DNA from: Desulfotalea psychrophila LSv54
Lineage (GTDB): Bacteria > Desulfobacterota > Desulfobulbia > Desulfobulbales > Desulfocapsaceae
Reading direction: 5' to 3'
Assembly (NCBI RefSeq): GCF_000025945.1
Contig: NC_006138.1
Coordinates: 2,460,001 to 2,492,000 of the forward strand
Length of the DNA: 32,000 nucleotides
The notes below the pieces were generated by a model. The model ran no database searches and was not told the origin of the DNA. It saw nothing but the letters and a program-made list of their open reading frames with translations. Positions within the stretch are counted from its first letter, which is position 1, and each line of letters opens with the position of its first letter. Position numbers and translations under genes: made by a program. Below are positions 18,970-25,295 of this stretch, piece by piece.

Positions 18970-19046
18970 TTCCCTTTAACACTTGCAGTAAAATTATAAA
19001 GATTGATACCGTGGAAATGGCCGGGACATCAAAAAAGTGAATATTT

Positions 19047-19313
19047 GTGAAGAGTAGAACAGCTGGCAGGGGCAAAACAGACTCCTTCTCAATACAGCCT
19101 TTGTCCTTCTCTGTGCGGGCATCCTGAGAGCACCGGAGAAGAGCTCCCCTGCCCATGGACAGCGATCACAAACGCTTCTACAGCATGGAAAAGAAGGAGG
19201 CCGAGCAGCACTGTATGTCGTGCCATGGACCTGCCAAGGAAAGCCCCCTCCCCGCCGAACATCCGTCAAAGTTTCGTTGCCTCTTCTGCCACACTCGGCC
19301 GGTGGAGAAATAG
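19047..19313 (+). pseudogene. Dihaem cytochrome c paralog, N-terminal anchor destroyed (GTG start, 12-nt shorter, in-frame TGA)
   Basis: The last 53 codons (19155-19313) align without gaps to 1784-1942 with 18 nt differences; both CxxCH motifs are kept. Upstream, the membrane-anchor region is scrambled and contains a TGA. Confidence 0.65.
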
Positions 19314-19323
19314 CTATGACGAT

Positions 19324-19362
19324 AGCTGTCAGTTATCAGCTGTCAGCTGTCAGCTGTCAGCT
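19324..19362. repeat. Heptanucleotide tandem repeat (AGCTGTC)n, about 5.5 units
   Basis: agctgtc agttatc agctgtc agctgtc agctgtc agcta. Related heptamers (cagctat, cagctac) occur at 1951-1972 and 21901-21914. Confidence 0.8.
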
Positions 19363-19805
19363 AAAAGAAGAAAAAGAAAACAGCAGTTAACCACAGAGGG
19401 CACAGAGAACACAGAGGAAATTAATTAAAAAGCACAGAAAAACAGGACTTGCTGGAGATTATAGCTTAATCGCGGAATGGCGAGTTCAAAAGAAAAGCAG
19501 TTAACCACTGCTTAGAGGACACAGAGGGGGAAATATTTAAACTGCTCAAATGGAGAAAAGAGCATAACTGAGCTGTAGTAGCCCTTGCTGATCAACTCGA
19601 TTTATCCCCTCTTACAAAAGATCCATGCCCTTCACTGCCTTTTCTTACATCCCCGTTTCACTGCTCCCCTGCCTACGGTAACTTCAAATTATGCTATTGC
19701 AGTTCCTGACAGTTCATAACTAATAACTCGCCCATTCCGCTACGCGTCACTGCTAAAACTGATAGCTTGCCATTCAGCTAACATTTCACTCCTACAGCTG
19801 ACACC

Positions 19806-20096
19806 TTTTTTCAACGTGTTGCTTGAGAGCGTTTTTAACTTTTTAGGAATAGGGATGGTGTTGAGTGCTTGTTTCTGGGTACATCAGAGACCTTCCTCTT
19901 TGATGCTAGGTAACAGAGGAATCCTTGTACCTCTTTTGTGCCCATATTCTTTGGGGTGGTCTGCATACTTGTAGTGCTGTAAATATCTGATGACCCAAGA
20001 GTAGTAGCTTCTCTCTGTGGTGAATGAGTAGTAGTGAAAGCGCAAAATCTCCTGCACCTGTCCCACAAGTTTTAAGTTAGGATTAGGGGGAATCAA
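19806..20096 (-). pseudogene. Integron-integrase-like tyrosine recombinase, N-terminal fragment (frameshifts, internal deletion, same distal truncation as copy 1)
   Basis: LVGQVQEILRFHYYSFTTERSYYSWVIRYLQHYKYADHPK / MGTKEVQGFLCYLASKRKVS / TQKQALN parallels IntI1 [29 protein letters not shown]...HP..[31 protein letters not shown] (from memory). TTG start. The fragment joins directly to the IPxPxKVK...KQHVEK tail. Confidence 0.65.
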
Positions 20097-20232
20097 GCTT
20101 GCTTTTCATCTTTGCCTCCTCTATATTCAGATCTGCAGAAAAAAAGAGGTACTATAAAAGTAATATGCCGAAATTTTTCTACTTATCAACACTGTTAGCT
20201 TGATTTTCATACTATTGGTTACTTTATAAATT

Positions 20233-21009
20233 ATGCAAAAAAATAAAACATATAGAAATGTTAGATTTAGAACAGATGCGCTGAAAGAGGCTTATAAGAA
20301 GCTTTCGGAATTTGCCGTGCAAAATGAGCTAGAAATAGATTGCGTAATATTATCAGTTGAGCATGATGACTCTGAATGGCACTATGATACTCAAGACGAA
20401 TTCTTTTCAGATTATAGAAAGTATCAAAACTCTGCATCTTTTCGACATTGGTGTAATAAGTTGTCCGTTCATGTAAATGTTTCTCCAACTTATACAGTAA
20501 TCGAAGTCAGTAGTAGTGATAGGGCTTTTATATATAGTATTTTTGAAATATTTGAAAAATACGCCACAGAAGATTATGTTACGCCTTCTCCTGAACTTGA
20601 AGAAAATCTGACAGTTTTTATCGGTCATGGTGGATCAAGCCAATGGCGGGATTTAAAAGATCATCTCCAAGATAAGCACAATATAAAGATTGAAGCATAC
20701 GAAACTGGTGCTAGGGCTGGTCACACGATCAGAGACATTCTTGAAGATATGGTTAATAACAGTACATTTGCTTTGTTGGTAATGACAGCCGAAGATGAAC
20801 AAGACACAGGCCAATTGAGAGCAAGGCAAAATGTAATCCATGAAATCGGTTTGTTTCAAGGGAGGTTAGGGTTTAATCGGGCTATTGTTTTAATGGAAAA
20901 TTCAACCGAAGAATTTTCTAATATTGCAGGTGTCCAACAAATTCGATATAGCAACATTACTGAAACTTTTGGTGAAGTACTCGCAACCATCAAGCGTGAG
21001 TTTAATTAA
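20233..21009 (+). CDS. TIR-like domain protein (CAP12/Pycsar-effector type, PF10137-like) with unrecognised 125-aa N-terminal domain
   Basis: Residues 127-245: TVFIGHGGSSQW...IKIEAYE...TIRDILEDMVNNSTFALLVMTAEDE...RARQNVIHEIGLFQGRLGFNRAIVLMEN..EEFSNIAGVQQIRY. This matches the hFIxHG / TxDD / RxRxNVxxExGxFxGxLG / SDxxG pattern of that family (from memory). Very AT-rich. ATG start with a weak RBS. Confidence 0.75.
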   Translation: MQKNKTYRNVRFRTDALKEAYKKLSEFAVQNELEIDCVILSVEHDDSEWHYDTQDEFFSDYRKYQNSASFRHWCNKLSVHVNVSPTYTVIEVSSSDRAFIYSIFEIFEKYATEDYVTPSPELEENLTVFIGHGGSSQWRDLKDHLQDKHNIKIEAYETGARAGHTIRDILEDMVNNSTFALLVMTAEDEQDTGQLRARQNVIHEIGLFQGRLGFNRAIVLMENSTEEFSNIAGVQQIRYSNITETFGEVLATIKREFN

Positions 21010-21107
21010 GTTAACAAGGCAATTAAACGGAAAATTTACAGTTGGCTGTTTTTCGTTCCTCAAACATTATAGCCAACTATAATTTTCCGCTTAGTGCGGC
21101 GTTATAT
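21010..21107 (+). other. attC-like imperfect palindrome directly after the TIR-like ORF
   Basis: GTTAAC core at 21010-21015. Left arm cggaaaatttacagttggct (21028-47) and right arm agccaactataattttccg (21071-89) pair with one bulged base plus one mismatch. 23-nt loop. GTTATAT at 21101-07. Length 98 nt, within the attC size range. No U-tract. Confidence 0.4.
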
Positions 21108-21142
21108 TCAAAAACAATAGGCCTCTGTGGATAAAGAACTTC

Positions 21143-21892
21143 ATGGTGTTTTTGTTGTTGTTGGATGATCACCGCCTGGCCTGGAAACTCCGACAGTACT
21201 GTCCCCTGAAAATGCAACGGTTTCAGGTCGACAATCCCCAAAAAGCAGGCACCTCTCTGGGCCATTATAGTGATATGAGCGAATTGGATGAGTATATCCG
21301 AGAGGCCCTACCTCCCAAGGAGCTGCGCTGTGCAGAAGATGGCCATAATAGAGAGGCCCATAAAATCAACAATGACTACCAGCATCGCCAAGATGTGCGA
21401 GAACGAGGCTCGGAAAAGATCTTTAAAAAATATGAGGCCACAGGAAAGTTAGATAAATACGAGACAATTTGTGACGACGACCTTCTCCTCTTAGAGCTGA
21501 TCCAAGACTCTCTCATCCAAAAGATATGTGATAAAGAGATCATCATCGAAACCAATCCCACCTCCAATGTCTATATCTCATTTTTGGGTGATCATGCCGA
21601 GCATCCCATATTCCGCTGGCATCCTATTAACAGGGAAGACTTGAATACAGGTGCTCGCTTCAACCCCCATGGCCTGCGAACCAGCAAGGCCAAGGTCTGT
21701 ATAAACACCGATGATCCGGCCATCTTTGTCACCAGTCTGCCCAATGAGTATGATCTTCTTAAGAATGCCGCACTTTCGAAGCATTCTCATAATCAGGAAG
21801 AGGTTGAGGTGTGGTTGGAGGGGATTCGTAAGACAGGCCTCGATATCTTTGACTACGACCATCTGGAGCATGAGTATAGTAAGATTCAATGA
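21143..21892 (+). CDS. Adenosine/AMP-deaminase-superfamily protein, C-terminal portion only (probable 5'-truncated remnant)
   Basis: IIIETNPTSN (res 133-142) and KVCINTDDPAIF (res 184-195) are the beta7/beta8 motifs of the ADA amidohydrolase fold. No HxH or HAGE motifs are present. The frame opens only at 21095, inside the palindrome flank. Confidence 0.55.
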   Translation: MVFLLLLDDHRLAWKLRQYCPLKMQRFQVDNPQKAGTSLGHYSDMSELDEYIREALPPKELRCAEDGHNREAHKINNDYQHRQDVRERGSEKIFKKYEATGKLDKYETICDDDLLLLELIQDSLIQKICDKEIIIETNPTSNVYISFLGDHAEHPIFRWHPINREDLNTGARFNPHGLRTSKAKVCINTDDPAIFVTSLPNEYDLLKNAALSKHSHNQEEVEVWLEGIRKTGLDIFDYDHLEHEYSKIQ

Positions 21893-22010
21893 GTTACTGA
21901 CAGCTACCAGCTATAGCAGTGGAGCGTAGCGAAATGGCGAGCTATCAGCTAAAAGCTGTCAGTAGCAGCAAAGCGTAGCGAAGTGGCGAAAAACAAAAGT
22001 ACCAGAGCAG
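21893..22010. repeat. Heptamer-rich segment with two more copies of the GCAGYRRAGCGTAGCGAARTGGCGA arm
   Basis: 21916-21941 gcagtggagcgtagcgaaatggcgag and 21965-21989 gcagcaaagcgtagcgaagtggcga. A 9-bp inverted repeat ctgacagct/agctgtcag lies at 21897-21905 / 21954-21962. Confidence 0.7.
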
Positions 22011-22085
22011 GCACCTGCAAAGCCTGACCTGGAGACAAAATGCTCCTTACAGGTCTCTGCAAAGGCTCTCTCAGCAATAAAGTAG

Positions 22086-22305
22086 CCCTTGCGGGTTCAC
22101 GCAAGGGCTGTCGGAGCAATAAAATGGTCTTTGCGGGTTCATGCAAGGGCTGTCGGAGCAATAAAACGGCCTTTGCAGGTTCATGCAAGGGCTGTCCGCT
22201 TAATAAGTTAGCCTTTGCGGGTTTGCGCAAGGGTGTTTTATTAGTTTTGCGGATCTCTGCAAGGTGTTTTATTAGTTTAGGGCTTTGCGGGCTTCTGCAA
22301 GAGGG
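22086..22305. repeat. Array of six 16-bp palindromes TTGC-N8-GCAA; the first three units are exact 42-nt tandem repeats
   Basis: TTGC starts at 22089, 22131, 22173, 22215 (spacing 42, 42, 42), then 22247 and 22285. Units 1-3 carry GCAATAAAA tails and units 4-5 carry the reverse complement TTTTATTAG, so the array has overall dyad symmetry. Half-sites in inverse orientation occur at 22013-22022 and 22057-22066. Confidence 0.85.
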
Positions 22306-22351
22306 GGATCGCACGGAGCTGAGCACCGGAGAAGTTGGCGAAAACCGAAAA

Positions 22352-22633
22352 GAAGTTAACCACAGAGAGCACTGAGAACACAGAGGGAAGAATATTTAAA
22401 CTGCTAAAAAACTACAGGAAAGATAAGGTCATAGGTGTTTCAACAATAGAGTCTTTGCGGGCGAGACAGGCGGCCCAGGATAAAGCCGAGTGTTACGAGT
22501 GGGCAGGACGGATTTACCGAGTAGCTTTAGAAATTAAGCACAGAGGACACTGAGAGAAAAGCATAGTTGATCTGTTCCAGCCCCTACGAAGTAATCCTTT
22601 TTTTTCATCCTACAAAACTCTGTGTTCTCTGTG
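22352..22633. repeat. Dispersed purine-rich ACAGAG modules shared with 19384-19550
   Basis: gaagttaaccacagagagcactgagaacacagagggaagaatatttaaactgctaaaaa (22352-22410) resembles gcagttaaccac...agaggacacagagggggaaatatttaaactgctcaaa (19497-19550) and 19384-19417. Further copies lie at 22537-22565 and, inverted, at 22609-22633. Confidence 0.75.
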
Positions 22634-22647
22634 TTCTCTGTGGTAAA

Positions 22648-22672
22648 TGTTTTTTAGCCTGCCGGGACAGAG
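22648..22672. terminator. Hairpin downstream of pepN
   Basis: cctgccggga-cagag-tcccggcagg, a 10-bp GC-rich stem 20 nt after the pepN stop. The U-tract is poor on the minus strand. Confidence 0.4.
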
Positions 22673-22691
22673 TCCCGGCAGGTTAATACTT

Positions 22692-25295
22692 TTAGAGCAA
22701 CTTGCTTACCACCTCGTGAACATCCGTTGAGAGATTTTCGGTGGCCAGAACCCGTTGCATCTCTTCTTTGGCGCGGAGTTGATGCGTCTCATCATATTTG
22801 CGCCAGCCGGTAAAGGCCGATGAGAGTCGGGCGGCTATTTGAGGGTTTGCCCTGTGCAGGGCAATGATATTATCGGCCAGAAAGGCGTAGCCGGCTCCGC
22901 TGACATCGTGGAAGCAGAGATGGTTATTGTTGGCAAAAAAGCCAATAAGGGCTCGGACCTTATTGGGGTTGGCCATGGAGAACTGAGGGTCTTTCATCAG
23001 TTTCTTCACTTGAGTCAGGGTATCCCCCACGGTTGATCCTGCTTGAATGGCAAACCACTTATCCATGACCAGAGGGTCTGCCTGCCACTTGTTGTAAAAA
23101 TCGGCAAGTAACTCCTTCTTAAGGGGAGATTCCGTATCAACCATGGCGGCCAGGGCGGCGATGGCATCGCTCATATTGGTTGCGCTATGGTACTGGTCGG
23201 CACAGGTCTGCCACCAGTCGGACATGGTTACTAAATAGGGCAGTACCGCATTTTTTATTGCCCTTCGTCCCATGGCGGCAGGAGTTATGGAGTAGGTTGT
23301 CTCTTCCTGATTCTCTCGATAGACCCTGGCCAAATCGTCTTGGCACTGTCGGGCAATCTCACTACGGACAAAGTCATGGGCCCTATGCAGATTCTCCACA
23401 TCTACCTGCGCCATCAGGGAGGCTAGATAACGTTCTTCGGGGAGACGAATGGCCTGGGCCACCAGGCTCTGGTCACCAACTGCCCGCAGATTTGCCTGCA
23501 TGGCCTCAACAAAGGCAGGTTTAAGGGTCAAAGTCTCACCTCTTTGCAACTGGTCCACCACCCTGAGAATGGTTTTAATGGTGAGGCGTTGACTTGCATC
23601 CCAGCGATTAAAGAGATCGCTGTCGTGGGCCATGAGAAAGACCAACTCGGCAGAGGGTTGAAATGGCTTAACTCGTACCGGGGCAGAGAAGCCGCGGAGG
23701 AAAGAGAGGACAGGCTTTTCCTTGATACCTTCAAAGAGAAAACACTGCTCAGTCTCCTTAAGATGGAGCACCCTGGTACCCTCGGCCAGCAGATCCTGGC
23801 CGTTTTCTCCAAGCAGACCCACCGCTACGGGAATATGAAAGGGGGCCTTGCTCTCCTGGCCCGGGGTGGGAGGACAGGTCTGGCGAATATAGAGACGATA
23901 GGTCTCCTCGTTGTTATTCCACTCTTCCTTCACCTCAAGACATGGGGTACCTGCCTGGGAGTACCAGTTACGAAAGAGGAGAAGATCAACGCCGGAGGCA
24001 TCCTCCATTGCTGCCACAAAATCATCGCAGGTTACGGCCTGACCATCGTGACGGACAAAATAGAGGTCCATGCCGGCCCGAAATTTCTCTGCCCCCAGCA
24101 GGGTATGGATCATGCGGATCACTTCGGCGCCCTTATTATAGACGGTGGCCGTATAAAAATTATTTATCTCCACATAGGCATCGGGACGAATGGGATGGGC
24201 CATGGCCCCGGCATCCTCCTTGAACTGATGGTCGCGCAGGACTTTGACATCGTCAATGCGCTGAACGGGCCGTGAGTTCATATCCGAGGAGAACTCCTGA
24301 TCGCGAAATACGGTCAGTCCTTCTTTAAGGCTGAGCTGAAACCAATCACGACAGGTCACCCTGTTACCGGTCCAGTTATGAAAATATTCATGGGCGATAA
24401 CACCTTCAATCCCCAGATAATCGCGATCGGTGGCTGTTTCGGGCAGGGCCAGGACATATTTGGAGTTAAAGACATTGAGGCCCTTATTCTCCATGGCCCC
24501 CATATTAAAATCATCCACGGCCACAATCATAAAAATATCAAGATCATACTCAAGACCAAAAACATCCTCGTCCCACTTCATTGCTTTTTTCAGGGAGACC
24601 ATGGCGTGGTCACACTTTGTCTTGTTTCGTTCTTCAACAAATATCTTCAGGGCTACTTCTCGACCGAAACGAGTGGTAAAACTCTCCTCAATGGCAACAA
24701 GCTCACCTGCCACCAGGGCAAAGAGATAGGATGGTTTGGGGTGTGGATCCTGCCAAAGGGCAAAGTGTCTGCCGCCTTCAAGTTCACCTGCATCTATCCT
24801 GTTGCCATTTGAGAGCATTACGGGACAGGCCTTTTTGTCGGCTTCGATACGGGTGGTAAAGGGGGCAAGGACACAGGGACGATCAGGATAGTAGGTAATC
24901 TTGCGAAAGCCCTCTGCCTCACACTGAGTGCAGTAATTACCGTTTGTTCTATACAGTCCCTCAAGAGAGGTGTTCTTATCCGGATAGATCTCAGTCACCA
25001 ACCGGAGTATAAAATTTTCTGGTACATCTGCAATACGCAGGAACTTATCCGTTTGCTCATAGTCGTTTTTATTAAGAGTGCGACCATCAAGGGCGACCTC
25101 CTTAAGAAGAAGCTCTTCACCGAGCAGGAGAAGACCCTCGGCAGGGTTCCCATCCGGGTTTTGTCTGTAGGATACCGTGGCTGTAACCACGGCTCTCTCT
25201 GCAAAGAGTTGGAACAACAGCTCAGTTTTTTCCACTAAAAAGGCGGGGGAGGTATAATCTTTTCTATAAATTGTCTCATGCTCTGGAGATTGCAT
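22692..25295 (-). CDS. pepN: Aminopeptidase N (M1 family)
   Basis: GAMENKG exopeptidase motif and the HEYFHNWTGNRVTCRDWFQLSLKEG zinc-binding motif. 867 aa. Confidence 0.9.
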   Translation of the reverse strand: MQSPEHETIYRKDYTSPAFLVEKTELLFQLFAERAVVTATVSYRQNPDGNPAEGLLLLGEELLLKEVALDGRTLNKNDYEQTDKFLRIADVPENFILRLVTEIYPDKNTSLEGLYRTNGNYCTQCEAEGFRKITYYPDRPCVLAPFTTRIEADKKACPVMLSNGNRIDAGELEGGRHFALWQDPHPKPSYLFALVAGELVAIEESFTTRFGREVALKIFVEERNKTKCDHAMVSLKKAMKWDEDVFGLEYDLDIFMIVAVDDFNMGAMENKGLNVFNSKYVLALPETATDRDYLGIEGVIAHEYFHNWTGNRVTCRDWFQLSLKEGLTVFRDQEFSSDMNSRPVQRIDDVKVLRDHQFKEDAGAMAHPIRPDAYVEINNFYTATVYNKGAEVIRMIHTLLGAEKFRAGMDLYFVRHDGQAVTCDDFVAAMEDASGVDLLLFRNWYSQAGTPCLEVKEEWNNNEETYRLYIRQTCPPTPGQESKAPFHIPVAVGLLGENGQDLLAEGTRVLHLKETEQCFLFEGIKEKPVLSFLRGFSAPVRVKPFQPSAELVFLMAHDSDLFNRWDASQRLTIKTILRVVDQLQRGETLTLKPAFVEAMQANLRAVGDQSLVAQAIRLPEERYLASLMAQVDVENLHRAHDFVRSEIARQCQDDLARVYRENQEETTYSITPAAMGRRAIKNAVLPYLVTMSDWWQTCADQYHSATNMSDAIAALAAMVDTESPLKKELLADFYNKWQADPLVMDKWFAIQAGSTVGDTLTQVKKLMKDPQFSMANPNKVRALIGFFANNNHLCFHDVSGAGYAFLADNIIALHRANPQIAARLSSAFTGWRKYDETHQLRAKEEMQRVLATENLSTDVHEVVSKLL

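Follow-up and report, generated by a model that had tools for sequence, protein, structure and literature searches.

The window analysed here, the whole 32,000-nucleotide stretch taken from the Desulfotalea psychrophila LSv54 chromosome, contains the apparent remains of a small integron followed by the end of a gene for RdrB, the adenosine deaminase of the anti-phage system RADAR. Read along the forward strand, the integron parts lie in the order intI remnant, attI, TIR cassette and attC, and the deaminase stump starts at the right-hand cassette boundary (21101/21102). The features, in window coordinates, are as follows.

19805-20096, minus strand: putative decayed intI remnant, consisting of the N-terminal ~70 residues (19854-20096) with one frameshift and a TGA, and a short later piece (19805-19858)
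20097-20194, plus strand: presumed attI region, with the crossover G of GTTAGCT (20194-20200) as its last base
20195-21101, plus strand: complete integron gene cassette, TIR gene plus attC, with boundaries taken from homologous cassettes
20233-21009, plus strand: ORF of the TIR-domain gene, PF10137 (CAP12/Pycsar-type), E 5e-29
21009-21107, plus strand: attC of the TIR cassette, R'' AGTTAAC at 21009-21015, R' GTTATAT at 21101-21107, crossover between G and TT at 21101/21102
21102-21157, plus strand: junction, from the cassette boundary to where secure RdrB homology begins
21143-21892, plus strand: ORF of 249 aa, in a frame open from 21095
21158-21892, plus strand: rdrB 3' remnant, equivalent to residues 689-924 of P0005 (the closest full-length relative), stop codon included
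21895-21964, no strand assigned: weak palindrome and dispersed repeat, not an attC (fold z -1.9)

The TIR gene and the palindrome behind it show the hallmarks of an integron cassette, namely R'' and R' cores, a folding bottom strand and shared boundaries between G and TT. The bottom strand of the palindrome folds at -19.5 kcal/mol (z -4.9), and none of 200 shuffled sequences folded equally well. Alignment with cassettes from other arrays, 85% identical at the protein level, placed the cassette limits between G and TTAGCT (20194/20195) and between GGCG and T (21101/21102). An attC covariance model built from three copies matched no site in this window other than 21009-21107, found sites directly 3' of every close TIR homologue and also matched the regular intergenic sites of a Vibrio parahaemolyticus cassette array. 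In addition, a 95% identical attC with unrelated flanks was found in a genome of the same genus, G001 (locus L012 1495-1599, contig C21). Judged by these features, the element that the sequence-only reading had called an attC-like palindrome following a TIR-like gene is a genuine attC of an integron cassette.

The attC in L012 adjoins a different gene, whose small product looks secreted; within the genus one attC type occurs with differing cassettes. The model also found three solo attC-like elements of the same family on the D. psychrophila chromosome (C1), at 1490741-1490843 (58.6 bits), 1933268-1933371 (46.5 bits) and 190335-190439 (28.4 bits). The ~260-aa TIR protein has 5657 full-length homologues, and its family recurs as a single-gene integron cassette (L101-L107), including in the chromosomal array of V. 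parahaemolyticus, and matches the PADLOC candidate system PDC-S35.

On the left side of the cassette, the stretch 19805-20096 is tentatively assigned as an intI remnant from weak best matches and context. It matched TIGR02249 at positions 2-71 with an internal TGA, NF011946 with an E value of 8e-5 and PF13495 with an E value of 1e-5, it can be aligned by eye with the intact IntI of the genome, and it lacks the IntI catalytic domain with its IntI-specific insertion. The region 20097-20194 is taken as attI because it lies between intI and the first cassette; in the homologous TIR cassettes of L101 and L102 similarity begins at GTTAGCT and the upstream sequences diverge. The intact integron integrase lies at C1:2245267-2246304 on the minus strand (TIGR02249, 392.8 bits). 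No attC of the modelled type was found alongside it and its DNA shows no resemblance to the window's remnant, nor was any similarity found between the junction or attI and this intact integron. The short piece 19805-19858 is 93% identical to another intI fragment at 2053-2107. More broadly, one module is present in two diverged copies, at 1590-2249 and 18985-20096; it combines a small ORF resembling a dihaem cytochrome with repeats and an integron integrase that is truncated. The copies are 80% identical across 372 nt and 93% across 55 nt, and IntI positions 115-181 survive in the copy at 2049-2249, positions 2-71 in that at 19854-20066.

The ORF behind the attC had been described as a 249-aa frame that opens at 21095, inside the right arm of the palindrome, and this description was confirmed: a TAG stop at 21092-21094 directly precedes the open frame. 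The motifs ETNPTSN (residues 136-142) and NTDDP (residues 188-192) had been recognized as those of a deaminase, and they coincide with the conserved C-terminal strand motifs ETNP[ST]SN and NTDDP of RdrB with a signal far beyond chance in PADLOC, in NCBIfam and among 1460 relatives. The NCBIfam RdrB profile NF041744 was matched at positions 627-850 of 850 (E 1e-56) with 193 bits against a curated cut-off of 800, so that the ORF ranks as a fragment of a family member and not as a full-length one. The PADLOC RdrB profile was matched at positions 679-909 of 914 (E 2.9e-40), and the match to Pfam A_deaminase PF00962 was marginal (28.7 bits, profile positions 266-295). The 1460 relatives were obtained by exhaustively searching 1.8 billion representative proteins, and among the best 148 of them 114 were at least 800 aa long and aligned through their C-terminus. 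The closest relative, P0005 (924 aa), is 58% identical over its residues 689-924 (BLASTP, E 4e-95), and its gene overlaps an upstream gene for an 873-aa protein matching RdrA, as in an rdrA-rdrB operon. The solved RdrB structures 8FNV, 8FNW, 8HR7 and 8HRC align with the ORF at residues 687-762.

By homology, then, the ORF is the C-terminal ~26% of RdrB. The comparison with full-length homologues that had been proposed thus gave a clear result, in that the ORF aligns with the ends of RdrB proteins only, and the break falls at residue 689 of P0005. The earlier estimate that the last ~45% of the parent gene remained was too high. A further string, SLGHY (residues 38-42), had been suggested as the beta-6 motif. 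It falls in a gapped, non-conserved stretch of the alignment with the closest full-length RdrB and was rejected as the GH motif, the true RLGHA being at residue 613 of P0005, upstream of the break. The absence of HxH and HAGE motifs had also been noted; no HAGE motif was found in the ORF, and there is one H-x-H string, HSH, that lies within the non-conserved C-terminal tail and is not the beta-1 metal motif.

What the fragment lacks bears directly on function. In Escherichia coli RdrB zinc is bound by a histidine tetrad, H152, H154, H498 and H530, with E501 as catalytic residue, active-site mutants lose defence, insertions 1-3 form the dodecamer, and RdrA is needed (PMC9994260). In P0005 the corresponding motifs start at residues 159 (NHIHLGG), 582 (SVHAGED) and 613 (RLGHALA), all upstream of the break, and neither the histidine tetrad nor the catalytic glutamate is found in the ORF. 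The surviving ~236 codons encode the last two strands of the barrel and a portion of 'insertion 3'. As the ORF starts within insertion 3, the product would therefore be capable of neither catalysis nor dodecamer assembly. There is no adjacent rdrA ATPase gene, and neither RdrA nor another piece of RdrB was found in the 100%-complete genome (three contigs). Searching the window by tblastn with three full-length homologues returned no further rdrB pieces, and no RdrB was found in 40 related genomes.

Set against these losses is the preservation of what remains. The rdrB remnant runs for 245 codons with no stop, and the ORF keeps all 21 invariant columns of 16 aligned RdrB C-termini, which implies that the truncation is recent or that the piece is under some constraint. 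An intact frame with every conserved C-terminal residue kept also speaks for the proposal of a two-gene module directed at NAD or adenine nucleotides, in which the fragment would be a short, functional subunit derived from a deaminase and would partner the neighbouring TIR protein. The two genes, on the same strand and 133 nt apart, could be co-transcribed. We nevertheless find this proposal barely credible. The stump is without zinc ligands and catalytic glutamate, an attC boundary and a GC gap of 11 points separate it from the TIR gene, and the TIR protein belongs to a large stand-alone family found recurrently in single-gene cassettes with changing downstream genes (DUF2971, unknown proteins, Hcp/DUF4225 and no deaminase). 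The proposed survey of co-occurrence was likewise negative: across 80 RdrB loci taken from species-representative genomes, no member of the TIR family (PF10137) lay within 10 kb, and RdrA was present at 65 of them; full-length RdrB coverage was also seen at 65 of the 80.

The module would further call for a conserved short form, and judging from the database entries there is none. A length-restricted search for a ~250-aa RdrB-like form returned two fragments only, and apparent short forms proved to be contig ends or split genes. Thus P0010 and P0094 are ends of ~1-kb contigs, one of which begins with what we take to be an adapter-derived peptide; P0115 and P0044 are tails of broken full-length genes, the first frameshifted and the second split by a stop, each with its N-terminal part still adjoining. 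Genuinely broken rdrB genes were seen as well. In Roseateles noduli (L055 9263-10714) a 5'-truncated rdrB spans profile positions 406-864 and is without rdrA, and in GCA_000281085.1 (L109 1277-3747) rdrB is split by a frameshift. The uninterrupted frame and fully retained conserved residues are also compatible with an rdrB tail kept on purpose, expressed by a read-through transcript and translation from a chance ATG and serving, for example, as a decoy or dominant-negative partner of RADAR components or as a helper of the TIR effector, although we give this hardly any weight. Almost certainly the ORF is no new defence module but a dead remnant.

Secure RdrB homology begins at 21158, which is 56 nt past the crossover point, and the intervening 21102-21157 may be diverged or frameshifted rdrB sequence. 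A continuation of the homology in another frame (21097-21162, where KELHG resembles 'kelyg' at profile positions 629-633) was rejected as 71 of 300 shuffles scored as well. The ATG at 21143 is out of frame relative to the KELHG reading. No promoter-like site was found between the attC and this ATG, and the present ATG is fortuitous.

On another reading, the rdrB piece was never resident here but is a captured gene fragment that came in as a second cassette, its attC having since disappeared or been overwritten by the repeats downstream. The stump begins exactly at the cassette boundary, integron cassette arrays are reported to carry gene fragments as well as phage-defence genes (10.1101/2024.07.02.601719), and the downstream DNA is repeat-rich and rearranged. 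Copies of the repeat at 21895-21964 are dispersed in the genome, one of them at 1965-2005 of the window, and TTGC-N8-GCAA-type palindromes recur every 42 bp between the stump and pepN (22084-22301), several of them scoring as terminator-like hairpins. The stump, however, has no 3' attC of its own: with filters off, the attC model, which detects even distant Vibrio attCs, returned no second attC in 21892-22692. Base composition also speaks against capture. The stump has a GC content of 46.5% and a GC3 of 54%, which is host-like (genome, contig C1, GC 46.8%; host gene pepN, GC3 56%) and unlike either the TIR cassette (GC 35% for the whole cassette, GC3 27% for the ORF) or the nearest rdrB (GC 38% for the whole gene, GC3 32% for its C-terminal part). 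A second cassette is accordingly regarded as quite improbable. The host-like composition fits instead an rdrB that had long been resident and against which an imported cassette came to lie.

The locus as a whole is part of an insertion. In G001 pepN directly neighbours the homologue of ORF 593-1651, and window positions 1652-22691 therefore constitute an inserted island of ~21 kb. The island is bracketed by the duplicated repeat/intI modules and contains IS3 fragments, a CFA-synthase (cyclopropane-fatty-acid synthase) operon, a lipocalin, a glutaredoxin/FTR fusion, UvdE, Fe-ADH, AraC and ablA-ablB. An island so full of IS3 fragments and duplicated repeat modules gives grounds for an alternative account, in which rdrB became a pseudogene by ordinary deletion, through repeats, an IS element or illegitimate recombination, and ended at the attC by chance; the broken rdrB genes of L055 and L109 likewise exist without any integron. 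Against this, the end-point lies within a few bases of the crossover between G and TT, which was defined independently by two comparisons, and this would be a marked coincidence if the deletion were random. On the whole we hold ordinary deletion to be a real possibility, though less likely than not.

The best overall explanation, at a probability of roughly 85%, is that the ORF is a non-functional 3' remnant of rdrB that starts at the cassette boundary of a decayed one-cassette integron. The suggestion of a RADAR-like deaminase gene reduced to a stump where a cassette ends was thereby borne out, on the basis of a match confined to RdrB positions 627-850 of 850, a closest homologue that stands in an rdrA-rdrB arrangement and a verified cassette limit. 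As to mechanism, integron integrases are known to use secondary sites. A resident rdrB would have stood beside the integron, and the integron integrase would have used a GTT-type secondary site within that gene as the recombination partner of attI or attC. The DNA between the recombined sites would then have been excised, deleting the 5' part of rdrB. We infer this integrase route because the break coincides with the integrase crossover site, while RdrB homology that is untraceable over the last 56 nt to the crossover point counts against it. The chance that the deletion was made by the integrase at a GTT-type secondary site in rdrB is put at about even. Any transcription of the stump would be read-through from the cassette promoter.

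These results indicate that the proper label for the ORF is an rdrB pseudogene fragment, and not an adenosine deaminase or a new defence subunit. They also imply that RADAR was formerly present in the lineage and that its loss took place at an integron's edge. The locus may represent a natural case of an integron integrase eroding a neighbouring defence locus by secondary-site recombination which, if shown, would be of modest interest to integron biologists.

The locus, an rdrB pseudogene stump at the edge of an integron cassette, is of a kind already familiar and can be set beside known systems. With RADAR RdrB (NF041744) the ORF shares a homologous C-terminal region, including the RdrB-specific stretch before ETNP[ST]SN and NTDDP, but is without insertions 1-2, most of insertion 3, the zinc-binding histidines and the catalytic glutamate; in contrast to a RADAR system, rdrA is missing from the genome. 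Housekeeping Add (PF00962, TIGR01430) has the last strand motifs of the TIM-barrel amidohydrolases in common with the ORF, yet it is matched far more weakly than RdrB, the long segment preceding ETNPTSN is peculiar to RdrB, and the domain is incomplete. Cad1, the CARF-adenosine deaminase (PADLOC CARF5--CARF_ADA), shows weak similarity in the deaminase C-terminus (E 3.4e-5), whereas its CARF sensor is absent from the ORF and the score is ~115 bits below that of RdrB. Finally, the locus differs from the defence-carrying integron arrays (10.1101/2024.07.02.601719) in having a decayed integrase, a single cassette and an rdrB stump of host-like composition without its own attC, and resembles them in its single-gene TIR cassette with an attC, adjoining a divergent intI.
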